From an uncultured Candidatus Saccharibacteria bacterium (lineage in GTDB: Bacteria; Patescibacteriota; Minisyncoccia; Phycocordibacterales; UBA12088): a stretch of 64,000 bases of DNA. Each line of letters opens with the position of its first letter. Position 1 is the first letter of the stretch. A program made the translations under genes and the position numbers. Of the stretch, positions 778 through 63,961 are shown piece after piece. Below the pieces are notes generated by a model. The model did no database searches and was not told the origin of the DNA. It saw only the letters and a list, made by a program, of their open reading frames with translations. The stretch covers positions 38,937 to 102,936 of the forward strand of contig CAZLUD010000001.1 in assembly GCA_964562615.1 (NCBI GenBank), written 5' to 3'.

Positions 778-1000
778 TTCAAACTCCATTGATTCGAGGT
801 TAAGCTTCCCAACACGTTTACACAACAGGGGTCATGCAAATGTTGGTCCAATTACAACCTAACATAATGCTTATTTATGTAAAGGATTAAGGAAACATTA
901 GGATTGCCAACAAACAATTATGCTATTGACTTTTCATAATAAAAACTTGTGATTGTTCAATCTCATCGGGGCATTTATTGATTTTGACCCATACAAAAAG

Positions 1001-1013
1001 TGGTGGACCATAG
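1001..1013 (-). repeat. 13 nt direct copy (12/13 matches) of the tRNA-Ala 3' end including the encoded CCA (tggtggaccatag versus tggtggaccctag at 1210-1222)
   Basis: Direct comparison of the two sequences; same orientation as the tRNA and about 200 bp downstream of its 3' end. Confidence 0.4.
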
Positions 1014-1209
1014 GTGACGCACACCTCAATACAAGCAATACCTGGTACTGCCCGTGGTGCGGCACAAAACAACTCCTAGAAGAAACTCCAAATTCAAGAA
1101 TTGCTACGCTCAGATAAGCGCTGTGACAAAAGCAGCAGCGTTTACTGCTGTTCAGTCCTTTGTAAGTAGACAAAAGAAAACCGCCAGACTGGTGACGGTT
1201 TATCAAATT

Positions 1210-1285
1210 TGGTGGACCCTAGCGGATTCGAACCGCTGACCTCCTGAGTGCAAAACAGGCGCTCTACCAACTGAGCTAAGGGCCC
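1210..1285 (-). tRNA. tRNA-Ala (anticodon UGC), CCA encoded
   Basis: Reverse complement GGGCCCTTAGCTCAGTTGGTAGAGCGCCTGTTTTGCACTCAGGAGGTCAGCGGTTCGAATCCGCTAGGGTCCACCA folds as a cloverleaf with anticodon loop TTTGCAC, G3:U70 in the acceptor stem (the Ala identity element) and T-loop GGTTCGAATCC. Confidence 0.9.
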
Positions 1286-44378: not shown

Positions 44379-44535
44379 TGTATCGTTTTGGACAGATTTG
44401 CTAAGCGACGCGACTTGAGCGCGAGAACCTATCACGACTTGGCTGCCGAACCTCAAATCTTCACTCCTTGGAAACCCACGGTTTTCCATAGCCTTCCTTC
44501 ACGGGAAAACAGCTGTTTTCCCGACCCCTTTCGCG

Positions 44536-44552
44536 TTCGAATCCAAGTCCGA
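44536..44552 (+). repeat. Inverted 17 nt copy of the tRNA-Gln 3' end (gttcgaatccaagtccg) 26 nt beyond the tRNA 3' terminus
   Basis: The reverse complement is identical to tRNA positions 51-67 (T-loop to acceptor). It forms a long hairpin with the tRNA 3' half. Confidence 0.55.
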
Positions 44553-44574
44553 CATCGCTCATTTCATTCGCTAG

Positions 44575-44645
44575 CTGCCGGACTTGGATTCGAACCAAGA
44601 TACACGCCTCCAAAGGGCGTAGTCCTACCATTAGACGATCCGGCA
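44575..44645 (-). tRNA. tRNA-Gln (anticodon UUG)
   Basis: Reverse complement TGCCGGATCGTCTAATGGTAGGACTACGCCCTTTGGAGGCGTGTATCTTGGTTCGAATCCAAGTCCGGCAG folds as a cloverleaf with anticodon loop CTTTGGA, U1:A72 and G73 (Gln identity). CCA is not encoded. Confidence 0.85.
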
Positions 44646-59845: not shown

Positions 59846-59928
59846 GCTGGGGTGGCGGAATGGTAGACGCGATTGACTCAAAATCAATTGCCCGAAAGGG
59901 TGTGAGGGTTCAAGTCCCTCCTCCAGCA
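59846..59928 (+). tRNA. tRNA-Leu (anticodon CAA), type II with a long variable arm
   Basis: GCTGGGGTGGCGGAATGGTAGACGCGATTGACTCAAAATCAATTGCCCGAAAGGGTGTGAGGGTTCAAGTCCCTCCTCCAGCA. Anticodon loop CTCAAAA, long variable stem-loop, discriminator A. CCA not encoded. Confidence 0.85.
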
Positions 59929-59951
59929 CAAACGAGTGAAGCGAGTGTAGT

Positions 59952-60053
59952 ACTGGAGGAGAACAGTACCTTCGTACTGTTCGTAGGGACTTGCACCACA
60001 AGAGTATTTCCATTTTACTAACTCACTTTGTTCGTAAGTAAAATTGGTCATGA
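59952..60053 (+). repeat. Repeat unit R1 of a tRNA-Leu-associated repeat family (~100 nt)
   Basis: The core (gggacttgcaccacaagagtatttccattttactaactcactttgttcgtaagtaaaattggtcatgacc) aligns with R2 and R3. It carries the hairpin aacagtaccttcgtactgtt, which is also present with compensatory changes in R3. Confidence 0.6.
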
Positions 60054-60115
60054 CCGGAGCCTTATCGAGCGAATGCGAGATGGCGAGGTCCGACCTAATT
60101 TTTACGACCGTAGGG

Positions 60116-60147
60116 AGATAAAAATGGAAGTACCCTTGTGGCCGACC
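60116..60147 (-). repeat. Partial inverted copy (R4) of the repeat core (agataaaaatggaagtacccttgtggccgacc)
   Basis: Reverse complement matches the ccacaagggcatttccattttt core of R1/R2. Confidence 0.45.
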
Positions 60148-60186
60148 AGCGTTCTTATGAGCGAAGCGAATTAGCAAAAGCGTGTC

Positions 60187-60202
60187 AGTCCCTCCTCCAG
60201 CA
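60187..60202 (+). repeat. 16 nt exact direct repeat of the tRNA-Leu 3' end (agtccctcctccagca)
   Basis: Identical to 59913-59928 in the same orientation, 259 bp downstream of the tRNA. Confidence 0.6.
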
Positions 60203-60250
60203 CCATGAACAAAGGAGTCAGAAGCGGAGCTTTTGACGACTATTGTGAAT

Positions 60251-60330
60251 TGCTGGAGGAGGGACTTGTACCACAAGGGCATTTCCATTTTTCTAACTCG
60301 CGTTGCTCGTAAGTAAAATTGGTCATCGCC
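60251..60330 (+). repeat. Repeat unit R2; it begins with an inverted 18 nt copy of the tRNA-Leu 3' end (tgctggaggagggacttg)
   Basis: About 85% identical to R1 and R3 over ~70 nt; 37 nt identical to R3. Confidence 0.6.
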
Positions 60331-60497
60331 GTAGGCGGTCTACGATTTTGCGAAATGAAGTGAAGCAAAATTGTCGCCGAGCTGGGGTCGAGAGTGCTTA
60401 GTGGTTTAGAACGTAGTGAATAAACTACTTAGCAACTCGTGACCAAGTCCTCCAACACTCAAGAAATATAGCCAAAAATCTCAACAAGTATATTTAC

Positions 60498-60803
60498 TTA
60501 TTTTGATTTATTTTGATTTTCTTCTCGTGCCAGGCGCGTAGATAGATCAGCAAGTTCTTTTTGCGCTTGTGCTGCCTTTCTTTTGAAATCTTCTATTTGC
60601 TTTTTAATTGTTTCTGCCTCTTGATCCTTGCGCTCAAGTATTCTTTTCATTCTTTCTATGTCACCTTCCTTTCTTTTTATTTCTTCCTCATCCTTTTTAA
60701 TTTCAGCTTCTTTTTTTGTTAATTCTGAATTCAGTCTTTCTTCTTGCTTTTCAAGATTTTCTATCTCTCTTTCTGTTTGTTGTATTAATTGTTCTATGGC
60801 CAT
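60498..60803 (-). CDS. Small coiled-coil protein (101 aa, E/K-rich)
   Basis: ORF track; heptad-rich with no transmembrane helix. Flanked by the repeat family. Confidence 0.45.
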   Translation of the reverse strand: MAIEQLIQQTEREIENLEKQEERLNSELTKKEAEIKKDEEEIKRKEGDIERMKRILERKDQEAETIKKQIEDFKRKAAQAQKELADLSTRLAREENQNKSK

Positions 60804-60873
60804 AGGTATATTGGTCTAAGTGTATATTTAATAGTATACAAGCATTGCCTAAGAAGAAAAGTATGGAATACTC

Positions 60874-61773
60874 ATGTCAATGAGTAAGCAAAAAGCAATT
60901 GCCGTAGTGGGTCCAACTGCCTCAGGTAAAAGTGCCCTAGCTATAACCCTTGCAAAAGAGATACACGGAGAAGTTATCTCTGCTGATTCACGTCAGGTAT
61001 ATGAAGGATTTGATACCACCACCGCAAAGGTGACGCCGGAAGAAATGTTAGGTATTCCTCATCACTTACTAGATATTGCCCCTATTGAAAGAGAGTACAC
61101 CGTCGCAGACTTTGTACACGATGGAAAGGCGGCAATTACTAGTATCGCCGCAAAAGGTGCTATTCCTATTATTGCAGGTGGTACTGGATTTTATATAGAT
61201 GCACTGCTGTTTGGACAATCTTTACCCCAAGTACCACCAAACCAAGTGCTTCGTGCATCACTTACTACAATGACCACCGATACCCTTTTTGCCATGCTAC
61301 AAGCAAAGGATCCTCACAGAGCCGCTACAATTGAACAACAAAATAAGCAGCGCCTCATCAGAGCTCTTGAAATAGTAGACACACTTGGAGTAGTGCCTCC
61401 TCAAGCAACTATGAGCGACGCACCGTACGACACGCTATGGATAGGTATCCTGTGGCAGCGAGATGAGTTAATCCAGCGAATACACGAAAGGGTTTTACAC
61501 CGTGTAGATAATATGATTACAGAAATCAGCAATGAGAGGAATCGCCTCACCCCTCAAATTGCCTCACGTCTTGGCTTTGATTTTACCCTCACCCTTTCAT
61601 ACGTAGAGGGCGCAATGACAAAAGACGCACTTATAGATGCTCTTACACAAAAGGATGCTGCCTATGCCCGCAGACAGATGACGTGGTTTAAACGAAACAA
61701 GCAAATCACCTGGCTTTCGCCAGAAACACTTCCATCGTCTGCCATTGATCTTGCGCGGCGATTTCTTGCGTAG
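60874..61773 (+). CDS. miaA: tRNA dimethylallyltransferase
   Basis: AIAVVGPTASGKSALAITLA P-loop, SADSRQVY, and IAGGTGFY. Confidence 0.9.
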   Translation: MSMSKQKAIAVVGPTASGKSALAITLAKEIHGEVISADSRQVYEGFDTTTAKVTPEEMLGIPHHLLDIAPIEREYTVADFVHDGKAAITSIAAKGAIPIIAGGTGFYIDALLFGQSLPQVPPNQVLRASLTTMTTDTLFAMLQAKDPHRAATIEQQNKQRLIRALEIVDTLGVVPPQATMSDAPYDTLWIGILWQRDELIQRIHERVLHRVDNMITEISNERNRLTPQIASRLGFDFTLTLSYVEGAMTKDALIDALTQKDAAYARRQMTWFKRNKQITWLSPETLPSSAIDLARRFLA

Positions 61774-61800
61774 CTCGGCTAAAGAGTATCGTATTAACAC

Positions 61801-61821
61801 GACGATAGTAATTCTATCGTC
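61801..61821 (+). terminator. 8 bp hairpin gacgatag/ctatcgtc just after the miaA stop
   Basis: Inverted repeat read from the sequence; no T-tract, so confidence is low. Confidence 0.25.
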
Positions 61822-62002
61822 ACTGAAGCTTTGGCATGGCAAAGCTCAGCATATGCGATATCTGTGGCGGGCATTGCCACGCCGTTGCGTATGCGAAGGC
61901 GGGCCCACTCCGATTGGCGTCAGCTCACTAAGCACGTTGTGCTAAGTGGCTCCTGCCCGACCTCGCCTGTCGTGCTCGCTATGCTCCGCGCGACATGGCT
62001 CC

Positions 62003-62115
62003 GGTGCTGACCAATTTTTGTTACGAGCACTGCGAGTTAGAAAAATGGAAATGCCCTTGTGGTACGAGTCGGAACAAACAGCACGAAGGTGCTGTTTTGT
62101 GTTCCCTTCACTCGC
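62003..62115 (-). repeat. Repeat unit R3 (inverted orientation relative to R1/R2)
   Basis: Reverse complement aligns with the R1/R2 core. It contains the hairpin aacagcaccttcgtgctgtt, covarying with the R1 hairpin. Confidence 0.6.
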
Positions 62116-62227
62116 TAGACGCTCGTTGCGGGCCCACTCCGACTCGAACGGAGGACGCTGGTTTTGGAGACCAGAATTTTACCTCTAAACTATAGGCCCG
62201 TTATATTTGATTCCCTCAGGTGGCGTA

Positions 62228-62482: not shown

Positions 62483-63961
62483 CTACAGAGAGCATGAGGC
62501 AGTTCTCGCCTGATTGCAGTAGATTGAAAAGTGTGATTTTCCTGAACCAAGAGTAGGTACAACTCTAACATTATCATCTGGAATAGGTGTGCCAGCTAAC
62601 CTTGAAGCTGCTAGTAGATCGTCCTTTTCTTTTTGATTGTTAACCTCCCATTCTGCCTTCATTCCAGTACTATTTGCCGCATTTACTACCTTGTTAATGT
62701 TTTGAAGCTCAGATTGAGTGTAGTACGCATCATTATATGATGGATTTGTAAAATCAAAATCAGCGCAGGTACCATTACTATGACAGGCGTTAACATGATT
62801 TACCGTGTCGTAGGCAGATGTCATTACAATCGCTTCAGATCCTGAGCTATCCAAGTTACTTTTAAATGTAGACAGCTTGGAATTATATGCGGGATCTACA
62901 TAACACACACCACCTGTATACGAGCAACCACTATTTGGATACGCAGTAGATTGTTCCAACCCACTTGGTGGTGTCGTTGGAGTTGTAGGAGTGGTTGGGG
63001 TTGTAGGGGTTGTAGGTTGACTGCTTTCAAGCGCAGCTATTTCACCATCCAGCGCTGCTCGTCTTATTGCAATATTAACGCAGACTTCTCTAGATGAATT
63101 TGCTGCAATATCACACTGATTTCTAATTCCTTCTGAAATTAAGGATCTCCTTTCTGCGCGTAATCTCTCTAAATTTTCTCTATCATTTATAGTTGCAATA
63201 TTCTCCAAGATTTGTAATCTTTCTGCACGATACGCATCAAGTTTTGCCTGCGATTCTCTTATACAAGCCACTCTATCAGATTCATATGCAAAGTTTTCGC
63301 ACAATTCAATTTCTCTTTCTAATCTTTGAATTTCAGTTTCTGCATTGGTGAGCGCCTCTCTAGCTTTGGTTATTTCAGTTGCTACAGTAACTACTTGCCC
63401 TGCGTTAGGATTTGGTAACAAACCTGCATTTCTTCCATCGTTCTGACAAGCAATCTGACTAACATCGGCAAGCGATCTTCCTGCAAGGGTATTTAGTACA
63501 GTATTTACCACAACCCACGCACCAAGCACTGCAACAAATCCAAAGAGTACATTCCAAAATATACCCTTTGCCTTAGAAATATTTCCTGGATTAGTGCTGG
63601 AGGTAAGGTACAAAAATCCAGCATAGGTGAACATGATACTCGCAAGAAGTGCAGACGCGAGTATTATGAATCTAATTATTCTTTGGATAGTAGCAAGAAA
63701 TTCGCACGGCCCACAACTGCTTGTATCTCCCACGTGATAACCTCTATTACATGTTACTAATCCCGATGCGTTTTCATTTGCTCCAAACTGTGTATTGGTG
63801 ATATCAACCACCTGCGCACTCTGTGACGAATCAATATATGGCGAATCAGCTACCCCACGTACCGCTACTATCGATGAAGAAAGATCAAAAGCAGGTAACA
63901 CGCCACCATGTTCGCCTTTTTCAACAACCATCCCAGCTCCTATAAGCAAGAAGAATTGCAT
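62483..63961 (-). CDS. Large membrane/secreted protein with a TrbC/VirB2-like double transmembrane hairpin, coiled coil, (TPT)n linker and a Cys-containing C-terminal domain
   Basis: Signal-like N-terminus, then two adjacent transmembrane helices (RIIRFIILASALLASIMFTYAGFLYL…IFWNVLFGFVAVLGAWVVVNTVL). Coiled coil, TTPTTPTTPTTPTTPP linker and a C-terminal domain with seven Cys. Confidence 0.45.
   Translation of the reverse strand: MQFFLLIGAGMVVEKGEHGGVLPAFDLSSSIVAVRGVADSPYIDSSQSAQVVDITNTQFGANENASGLVTCNRGYHVGDTSSCGPCEFLATIQRIIRFIILASALLASIMFTYAGFLYLTSSTNPGNISKAKGIFWNVLFGFVAVLGAWVVVNTVLNTLAGRSLADVSQIACQNDGRNAGLLPNPNAGQVVTVATEITKAREALTNAETEIQRLEREIELCENFAYESDRVACIRESQAKLDAYRAERLQILENIATINDRENLERLRAERRSLISEGIRNQCDIAANSSREVCVNIAIRRAALDGEIAALESSQPTTPTTPTTPTTPTTPPSGLEQSTAYPNSGCSYTGGVCYVDPAYNSKLSTFKSNLDSSGSEAIVMTSAYDTVNHVNACHSNGTCADFDFTNPSYNDAYYTQSELQNINKVVNAANSTGMKAEWEVNNQKEKDDLLAASRLAGTPIPDDNVRVVPTLGSGKSHFSIYCNQARTASCSL

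Follow-up and report, generated by a model that had tools for sequence, protein, structure and literature searches.

The repeats considered here lie directly downstream of tRNA genes in an uncultured Candidatus Saccharibacteria bacterium (GenBank assembly GCA_964562615.1, contig CAZLUD010000001.1), within a 64-kb stretch (64,000 nt) referred to below as the window. All coordinates are those of the window, and the region of interest spans 59846-62199. In this region, tRNA-Leu(caa) on the forward strand and tRNA-Trp(cca) on the reverse strand stand on either side of a coiled-coil gene and miaA. Two cargo-less units follow tRNA-Leu directly, in tandem, and a third follows tRNA-Trp, with unit sizes of 230-275 bp; nested within them are four copies of a smaller hairpin mini-element, here called the core (R1 to R4). 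The features are as follows.

59846-59929, forward strand: tRNA-Leu(caa) (ARAGORN; Rfam tRNA 60.4 bits; direct-repeat family D4)
59913-59929, forward: repeat copy A1, the final 17 nt of tRNA-Leu (AGTCCCTCCTCCAGCAC)
59930-60203, forward: tRNA-Leu unit 1, 274 bp, absent as a block from the syntenic locus L120
59930-59949, forward: trailer 't' of unit 1
59950-59961, forward: inverted acceptor copy of unit 1
59962-59981, forward: hairpin of unit 1 (20 nt), splitting the inverted tRNA copy
59985-59993, forward: inverted T-arm copy of unit 1
59994-60050, forward: core R1 (CACCACAAGAGTATTTCCA, a stem-loop, then TTGGTCA; nhmmer E 8e-11)
60092-60143, reverse: core R4, a whole copy of a different stem subtype (nhmmer E 2.5e-11)
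60187-60203, forward: direct repeat A2, closing unit 1 after core R1, the body and core R4, in that order
60204-60458, forward: tRNA-Leu unit 2 (inverted repeats I3 and I7; class-2 model match at 60368-60446, E 3e-14)
60204-60250, forward: spacer of unit 2
60251-60268, forward: contiguous (unsplit) inverted tRNA-Leu 3' end of unit 2
60269-60325, forward: core R2 (nhmmer E 5.6e-12)
60384-60446, forward: class-2 body of unit 2, after core R2 and ending in CTCGTGACCAA
60447-60458, forward: decayed tRNA 3'-end copy of unit 2 (GTCCTCCAACAC)
61899-62127, reverse: tRNA-Trp unit (repeats D8 and I23), which aligns with Leu unit 1
61899-61913, reverse: direct repeat of the tRNA-Trp 3' end, reached after core R3 and a class-2-like body
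62008-62064, reverse: core R3 (nhmmer E 3.3e-12)
62065-62074, reverse: inverted T-arm copy of the Trp unit (against tRNA 62138-62149)
62077-62096, reverse: hairpin of the Trp unit (20 nt)
62099-62106, reverse: inverted acceptor copy of the Trp unit (weaker match)
62107-62127, reverse: trailer 't' of the Trp unit
62128-62199, reverse: tRNA-Trp(cca), anchor of the third unit (ARAGORN; Rfam 59.7 bits)

Units of this kind follow a common plan. Directly after the tRNA gene comes the trailer, which often includes a terminator. The acceptor 3' strand then follows in inverted form, usually with a hairpin behind it, and next the inverted T-stem and T-loop (..TCGAA). The body comes after these, and the unit closes with a direct copy of the tRNA end that spans the tRNA from T-loop position C56 through the 3' end. 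For tRNA-Leu this direct repeat is exact over 17 nt (59913-59929 = 60187-60203), one nucleotide more than the 16 nt at 60187-60202 given in a preliminary description of the region, and a parallel repeat of the tRNA-Trp end is exact over 15 nt (62128-62142 = 61899-61913). Cores R1 and R2 are each preceded by an inverted tRNA-Leu 3' end, as that description had proposed, and R3 carries the inverted T-arm of tRNA-Trp instead. The tRNA-derived sequence in every copy therefore corresponds to the tRNA next to it. The reported association with tRNA-Leu thus holds for the Leu units but extends to any adjacent tRNA (Leu, Trp and Gln here; 19 isotypes and tmRNA elsewhere). The 20-nt hairpin occurs only twice in the window (59962-59981 and, on the reverse strand, 62077-62096), with one compensatory change between the two (T:A to C:G). 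It had been assigned to R1 and R3, and both occurrences are present, but it sits outside the shared core, between the acceptor and T-arm halves of the inverted tRNA copy. Leu unit 1 and the Trp unit are homologous in trailer, hairpin, core position and body, whereas both of their arms differ, and each unit with a core in the window holds one at the T-loop-derived site.

We interpret these repeats as composite mobile DNA made of two nested layers, tRNA-integrated cargo-less units and the hairpin core, and assign this reading a probability of roughly 0.6. The idea of a single MITE/REP-like (miniature inverted-repeat transposable element/repetitive extragenic palindromic) or small-RNA family using the tRNA-Leu attachment site was right in that the repeats are small, non-coding and tied to the attachment-site part of tRNA genes; the element types are nevertheless two, one nested in the other.

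An nhmmer family profile finds exactly four cores in the whole 64 kb, all of them in this region (E 3e-12 to 8e-11), and two core patterns match the window three times each, versus 0 times in shuffled sequence. Four related elements had been counted before, with R4 taken as partial; R4 is in fact complete and belongs to another subtype. A shared core of ~70 nt at ~85% identity had also been described. The core is indeed repeated, with pairwise identities of 70-93% (R2/R3 93%, R1/R2 88%, R1/R3 82%, R4 versus the rest 70-72%), but it is a separate mini-element of ~52-58 nt (52-57 nt in the window). Across the family it comprises a 5' arm of ~19 nt (CACCACAAGRGYAYTTCCA), a single hairpin that varies in sequence and length, and a 3' arm of 7 nt (TTRGGTC), and the span from CCAC to GGTC is mostly 50-55 nt (values of 50, 51, 52, 53, 54 and 55). 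The core has no coding capacity: a coding remnant was rejected on the grounds that core lengths are not multiples of three and that the open reading frames (ORFs) over the repeats have no Pfam match. The short conserved frame seen in each copy is a by-product of nucleotide conservation, as had been suspected. Repeats of a diversity-generating retroelement were also rejected, the differences between R1 and R2 not being adenine-specific.

Hairpins with compensatory changes, reported earlier for the window, are a real and family-wide feature. The first pair of the core stem, after the T-run, is Watson-Crick in 89 of 97 copies (C:G 50, A:T 38), compared with a mean of 47 and a maximum of 65 in shuffles, and the lengths of the T-run and A-run covary. 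Compensatory G:C to A:T exchanges in the inner stem are seen among R1, R2, R3 and the ortholog of R2 in L120. When 96 cores were aligned simply with MAFFT, RNAalifold returned no structure, the 4-T and 5-T subtypes having fallen out of register, and anchored pair counts were used instead. A TC/TC internal loop recurs, which on the opposite strand is a tandem G-A mismatch (GA/GA), and that opposite strand folds better in 95 of 101 copies.

These stems bear on a possible, if rather unlikely, alternative: that the units, perhaps together with the cores, function as structured RNA or as folded single-stranded DNA, their mobility being secondary. By pairing, the inverted arm and the tRNA-end copy would form a tRNA-like three-way junction whose branches are an acceptor-like helix, the side hairpin and a longer T-like helix that bears the body hairpins; this structure would mimic or sense the neighbouring tRNA or act in its processing or termination. 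The covariation of the core stem favours such a function, and the recurrent TC/TC (GA/GA) loop and GCGAAGC-type loops suggest selected structure. However, the core stems are strictly Watson-Crick, with zero G-T or A-C mismatches scored, and core orientation relative to flanking genes is random (23/21/21/19), which also led us to reject the core as a co-transcribed terminator or 3'-UTR (3' untranslated region) element. The better-folding strand opposes the tRNA-sense strand in R1-R3, and nothing in Rfam 15, at the gathering threshold or at E up to 10, overlaps the repeats, the tRNAs alone scoring above threshold. Covariation had been put forward as an argument for a functional RNA; strict Watson-Crick stems and random orientation fit a DNA hairpin at least as well, and covariation on its own is no argument for RNA.

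Further copies of the core exist well beyond the window. A 21-nt degenerate pattern matches at least 118 stretches of species-representative genomes, nearly all of them metagenome-assembled genomes (MAGs) of Patescibacteria (candidate phyla radiation, CPR), and the matches listed include Saccharibacteria, Paceibacteria and Taylor-, Vogel-, Nomura- and Kaiserbacteria. In the loci of the listed matches together with the window, the nhmmer profile recovers at least 153 copies. A phage or plasmid origin was rejected: viral contigs gave 0 matches to the core and body patterns, a recombinase search there turned up no relative, and BLAST against phages and plasmids gave no match.

The sites occupied by cores point to loops. 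Cores are intergenic in 113 of 133 copies. They occur nested in other cores and in tandem, with exact boundaries, and they also interrupt the T-loop of duplicated tRNA pieces (L094, L112 and L109) and the loops of hairpins that resemble terminators or REP sequences. Units read ..TCGAA.. where no core is present, and a core enters this sequence at ..TCG|AA... The target is loose (T-Y-G|R), typically a T-loop TTCG|A or CTTG|A in either orientation, or another hairpin loop. The core ends (CACCAC..., ...TTRGGTC) are not terminal inverted repeats, the internal hairpin being the only one, and no target-site duplication of fixed length is seen at the T-loop insertions in L094, L112 and L109, flanking 3-mers being equal in 9 of 101 copies. 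Flanking inverted repeats were rejected as a universal trait of cores; they accompany only a subset (mean best stem 6.1 versus 5.3 in controls).

R4 is a strain-level insertion polymorphism and provides direct evidence of recent core mobility. L122, a contig from a near-identical strain (MiaA 99%), keeps unit 1 and R1 and lacks R4, with 52 nt missing. Its empty site reads GGTCCGACC|AGCG, the filled site in the window bears CCGACC on either side, and the R4 boundary is ambiguous by 6 nt. One candidate for moving the cores is an HUH-type single-strand DNA enzyme, as for REP sequences and their RAYT (REP-associated tyrosine transposase) or for miniature IS200/IS605 elements, which would recognise the hairpin with its flanks and insert the core 3' of a short motif in single-stranded loops. 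We consider this route unlikely, although several features are in keeping with it: the single conserved hairpin between its 5' and 3' arms, the lack of terminal inverted repeats or a clear target duplication, insertion after T-Y-G into loops of T-arms, terminators, REP-like hairpins and other cores, and tail-to-tail pairs (R1/R4) resembling REP doublets. The GA/GA mismatches and GCGAAGC mini-hairpins observed here fit as well, GCGAAGC being a very stable DNA mini-hairpin and GA/GA mismatches being likewise stable in single-stranded DNA. Yet no Y1 transposase or RAYT gene turned up near any copy, albeit with no search aimed at them, core orientation shows no bias when gene direction is taken as a stand-in for that of replication, the similarity between flank and element end is weak (2.1 versus 1.6 matches of 6), and the conserved GTAG motif of REP-type sequences is absent from the core.

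Core loops in other CPR genomes (L010, L040, L068, L033 and L016; L011 and L060; L041 and L049) contain further small repeat families, including CTGTCCACTCATTGGAT...ATCTCAATGAGTCTTGCG, CAACAGCTGTTGATACCCGGGAGCGGTAC and a core-like sister family, CACCGCAAGGGCACTCCTTGTTTTC...GAAAACAATGTCG.

The units, like the core, belong to a large family. In the fetched CPR loci, 28 of 80 tRNAs have a copy of their own 3' end (last 14 nt, at most 2 mismatches) within 450 nt downstream, some without a nearby core. Bodies fall into at least three classes. Class 2 reads (G)CCGAG-NN-GGGGTCGAGAG, a hairpin and then CTCGTGACCRA, with a conserved two-hairpin body; in the window it is clear in Leu unit 2 and diverged in Leu unit 1 and the Trp unit, and class 3 is found at tRNA-Gln. 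The class-2 motif alone is present at no fewer than 120 loci in metagenomes. Among the 127 class-2 matches listed, 84 have a tRNA on the same strand within 600 nt upstream, representing 19 isotypes, and 34 of those 84 tRNA-linked units carry an exact 16-nt copy of their own tRNA end right after the motif; several further class-2 matches follow tmRNA genes. A conserved CTCGTGAC motif stands directly before the C56 boundary and is followed by CGA or CAA, and the body end agrees with the T-loop (CCGA with TCGA, CCAA with TCAA) in 44 of 45 cases. Because the body-end bases track the T-loop bases in this way, tRNA identity begins at C56.

The inverted arm is equally specific to its tRNA. Both halves match the adjacent tRNA in 30 of 76 units (at most 1 mismatch), where a rough chance expectation is ~1. 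In 22 of those 30 units the arm is split by an insert of 23-27 nt (mode 25) that folds as a hairpin, typically with a 9-bp stem and a 4-nt loop, and the hairpin sequences are unrelated between units; the 20-nt hairpin of the window is a local example of this arm-splitting module. A retroviral-type primer-binding site was rejected as an account of the arm, which matches the genomic trailer base past the discriminator and has no TGG complement of CCA. The possibility that trailer 't' consists of leftover C-terminal codons of a recombinase was set aside, the similarity being too weak to claim. Motifs of the GAGCGAAGCGA / GAACGTAGTGAA type recur in the trailers (59930-59949, 62107-62127) and in the loops of unit hairpins (60156-60170, 60405-60420).

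Within the window, tRNA-matched units lie behind three of the four tRNAs (Leu, Trp and Gln). The third of these is coreless:

44574-44645, reverse: tRNA-Gln(ttg)
44440-44573, reverse: tRNA-Gln unit, coreless, downstream of tRNA-Gln and with a body class as in L057 and L066
44540-44551, reverse: inverted T-arm copy of the Gln unit, with a spacer of ~20 nt also present
44456-44528, reverse: class-3 body (GGGGTCGGGAAAACAGCTGTTTTCCCGTGAAGGAAGG...GGAGTGAAGATT)
44440-44450, reverse: decayed 3'-end copy

Downstream of tRNA-Ala(tgc) (window 1000-1285, reverse strand), a 9-10 nt copy of its end (GGTCCACCA) is present ~200 nt off and is too short for a unit.

A tRNA end followed by an inverted and then a direct copy, with hairpins at both turns, is also what two template switches would be expected to leave. 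Such an inverted triplication would arise by replication template switching at T-arm and terminator hairpins, with small elements added later at the palindrome centre and no recombinase involved, and in some units the complementarity does extend into the A-rich trailer and the T-rich terminator tail. We regard this origin as very improbable. It leaves unexplained the homologous trailer 't', side hairpin and body shared by the Leu and Trp units despite their differing arms, the exact C56 boundary and the conserved motif before it throughout the family, and the recurrence of this module where the 9.7-kb recombinase element described below ends.

Comparison with related genomes reveals units that come and go as blocks. 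L120 is a syntenic Saccharibacteria MAG locus (topA-relA-parB-tRNA-Leu-small ORF-miaA-tRNA-Trp-rpmG; MiaA 75% identical). Its tRNA-Leu end runs straight into sequence corresponding to window 60204 onward, which makes unit 1 an insertion/deletion difference of 274 bp with the repeat at its borders. At the L120 tRNA-Trp, no inverted arm, hairpin, core, body or direct repeat was found; the tRNA end lies ~30 nt from the miaA stop, and the first ~20 nt of trailer 't' (AACGAGCG..TAGCGAGTGA) are kept. Unit 2, including core R2, has an ortholog in L120; the two are 90.8% identical along 250 nt, as against 42-50% identity between the window and L120 at four-fold degenerate sites of the genes on either side. 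L119 and L122 are of the same species as the window. These public contigs of the source species (1658 nt and 2004 nt, respectively) stop inside R2, R3 or R1, which indicates that the repeats fragment short-read assemblies. In two further places L122 departs from the window, to which it is otherwise near-identical: the body hairpin beside R4 (window 60144-60186) differs at many positions, and the class-2 motif of unit 2 is altered from GGGGTCGAGAG to TTGGCCCCGAG.

The same comparison speaks to the proposal that the inverted R2/R3 pair is a switch that flips the 1.7-kb segment with the coiled-coil gene and miaA. R2 and R3 do form 72-nt inverted repeats with 89% complementarity, 1664 nt apart. 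Nevertheless, the segment has one gene order and orientation in the window, L119, L122 and L120, the last a related species without R3; there is no adjacent invertase gene and no recombinase in the window, and R3 is accounted for by its own tRNA-Trp unit. An inversion switch, as suggested in the preliminary description, is thus extremely improbable. As a neighbouring feature, the window encodes at 62483-63961 (reverse strand) a 492-aa protein with a PTTPTTPTTPTT repeat, and the syntenic neighbours in L120 match T4SS_pilin and lysozyme-like domains.

The high identity of unit 2 speaks either for constraint or for concerted evolution within a shared family, and the former would suit the structured RNAs or folded DNA considered above. 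Also in line with such a function are the compensatory changes between orthologs and between paralogs, the side hairpin whose geometry is constant and whose sequence is free in 22 of 30 units, and the predicted RNA folds, which close via the inverted arm and the tRNA-end copy into a tRNA-like three-way junction (unit 2, -72.4 kcal/mol, z -3.99; Trp unit, -74.5 kcal/mol, z -2.24). On the other hand, units and cores vary in presence between close relatives, a terminator separates the tRNA from the inverted arm in many units, and no promoter-like site was found within units.

A link between the units and a recombinase comes from a class-2 body that lies 9.7 kb from its tRNA. In this locus (L221), a gene for a 519-aa large serine recombinase (Resolvase, Recombinase and zinc-ribbon domains) runs antisense into tRNA-Glu(ctc) with its 3' end, and a helicase and other genes follow. 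At its distal end the element has an inverted tRNA-Glu end and a class-2 body closely resembling the one in window unit 2, and then repeats 16 nt of the tRNA end with 1 mismatch. Homologs of this recombinase number 3575 proteins at E<1e-40; the best matches are 60-90% identical, and they belong to Patescibacteria wherever named. The recombinase gene overlaps the tRNA 3' end in seven of nine loci examined, and the antisense translation of the T-loop forms the C-terminus in 83 of 109 full-length homologs. No distal repeat, and hence no second complete element, was found in L245, L246, L228 or L248 within the DNA spans examined, so the recombinase link is carried by one full example (L221) and by adjacency at the level of the family.

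Several other recombinase loci deserve mention. In L243 (11480-11700) and L244 (11470-11700) the recombinase genes abut only a tRNA 3' fragment (T-arm and acceptor strand), and in L243 body-like sequence (GCGAAGGGCGAG) precedes this fragment; both may represent junctions of an attP-like or secondary kind. tRNA-Thr(ggt) is the tRNA at four recombinase loci that come from different samples (L247, L248, L249 and L246), and the cargo of L248 includes a 1318-aa Peptidase_S74 protein and DUF3800. The recombinase element on tRNA-Gly(tcc) in L245 (1-11561) encodes a type I restriction-modification system, a PIN protein, an M78 peptidase and a TrwB-like coupling protein, which suggests defence cargo and conjugative transfer within the same element family.

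On this basis, the units would be products of site-specific integration at the T-loop/3'-end region of tRNA genes, which is also where the crossover would fall. As expected of tRNA-integrating elements, they are bounded by a tRNA gene and a direct repeat, their tRNA identity starts in the T-loop next to an element-side motif, and polymorphism and tandem accretion occur at the same tRNA. They are most likely non-autonomous derivatives of Patescibacteria-wide integrative elements whose large serine recombinase is convergent with, and overlaps, the tRNA 3' end, and they are probably mobilised in trans. The tRNA end supplied by the element is identical to the displaced one, so that the tRNA-side junction would still resemble an empty target; a further copy could therefore integrate before an older one, as unit 1 ahead of unit 2, which would explain the tandem units. 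The cores would be later insertions at the T-loop-derived TCG|AA site of each unit.

A number of observations weigh against this interpretation of the repeats as composite mobile DNA. For the recombinase, tblastn found no such gene in the 64-kb window, so that the window units are placed in this group by the homology of their body module; a recombinase at one end with the arm, body and repeat module at the other is seen in one element (L221), and the direct repeat of L248 was not found within 10 kb. Serine-recombinase att sites leave the inverted tRNA copy and its hairpin unaccounted for, as they do the way in which the arm comes to fit every new tRNA in units that are otherwise homologous (Leu unit 1 versus the Trp unit). 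Circles of 230-275 bp are small for recombinase-mediated excision. The identity of unit 2 (90.8% versus 42-50%) points to constraint beyond that of a decaying scar. As for the core, its orientation is unbiased, and neither a transposase nor terminal inverted repeats nor a clear target duplication came to light.

The unexplained arm leaves room for a bolder idea, which we think quite unlikely and offer as a speculation. The tRNA-matched arm and the hairpin of fixed size, paired with the tRNA-end copy, might form a target-matched structure (RNA or folded DNA) that programs or licenses the integration site or acts on the neighbouring tRNA and is re-templated at each move. If this were true, the arm would be a nucleic-acid-guided specificity module for a serine-recombinase element, and a guided arm would explain the spread over at least 19 tRNA isotypes and tmRNA.

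Returning to composite mobile DNA, the closest precedent is the ssrA islands of Dehalococcoides with the serine recombinase DsiB (McMurdie et al. 2011, PMC3146451). In these islands the recombinase gene lies next to attL with its 3' end antisense over the tmRNA gene, insertion is in the T-loop, each island is bounded by a ~20-bp direct repeat of the 3' end with a conserved motif directly upstream of each repeat, and tandem arrays occur in which islands without an integration module are read as cis-mobilizable. The Patescibacteria elements match this layout in overlap, T-loop site, repeat, motif, accretion and module-less forms. They differ in their targets (at least 19 tRNA isotypes and tmRNA rather than one gene), in their host lineage (Patescibacteria) and, in the window, in being geneless units of 230-275 bp. 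Each unit also has an inverted tRNA-matched arm split by a hairpin, a feature not seen in the description of those islands. The literature was searched by topic and by sequence strings, and no description of the present elements was found; in kind, they are close to known tRNA- and tmRNA-integrating serine-recombinase elements and to hairpin-type repeats.

Cis-mobilizable elements (CIMEs) are deletion derivatives of integrative elements that retain only the att sites. The units resemble them in being bounded by attL- and attR-like tRNA-end repeats, in lacking a recombinase of their own and in tandem accretion. Whereas CIMEs described to our knowledge are kilobases long and few per genome, the units measure ~250 bp, are strongly stereotyped and, in many genomes, follow a large share of the tRNA genes. 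The core, for its part, is similar to REP/REPIN-RAYT sequences and IS200/IS605 miniatures: it is short, non-coding, intergenic and multi-copy, centres on one hairpin between conserved flanks, lacks terminal inverted repeats, and occasionally forms tail-to-tail doublets (R1/R4). It differs from REP/REPIN in having no GTAG-type motif and no strand bias, in preferring T-loop-like TTCG|A, in that no transposase turned up (none being specifically sought), and in the conservation of its 5' arm, at the 21-nt level, between CPR lineages of class rank. Classical MITEs such as Correia elements, RUP and BOX are also small, non-autonomous, strain-polymorphic and self-nesting and also break assemblies; terminal inverted repeats and target-site duplication, the defining features of MITEs, are both absent from the core.

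CPR/Patescibacteria genomes are small and usually considered repeat-poor. Despite this reputation, stereotyped tRNA-matched mini-units occupy a large share of tRNA genes in the sampled CPR loci, and a core of ~55 nt is conserved at the 21-nt level over class-level lineages. In practical terms, the repeats break assemblies and create false small ORFs, and the recombinase family with its minimal substrates of ~250 bp could serve as compact tools for integration at tRNA sites. The re-matching of the arm to each tRNA and the strong conservation of unit 2 suggest a mechanism or function not yet described, and the repeats are markers of active site-specific recombination in organisms difficult to grow in culture.

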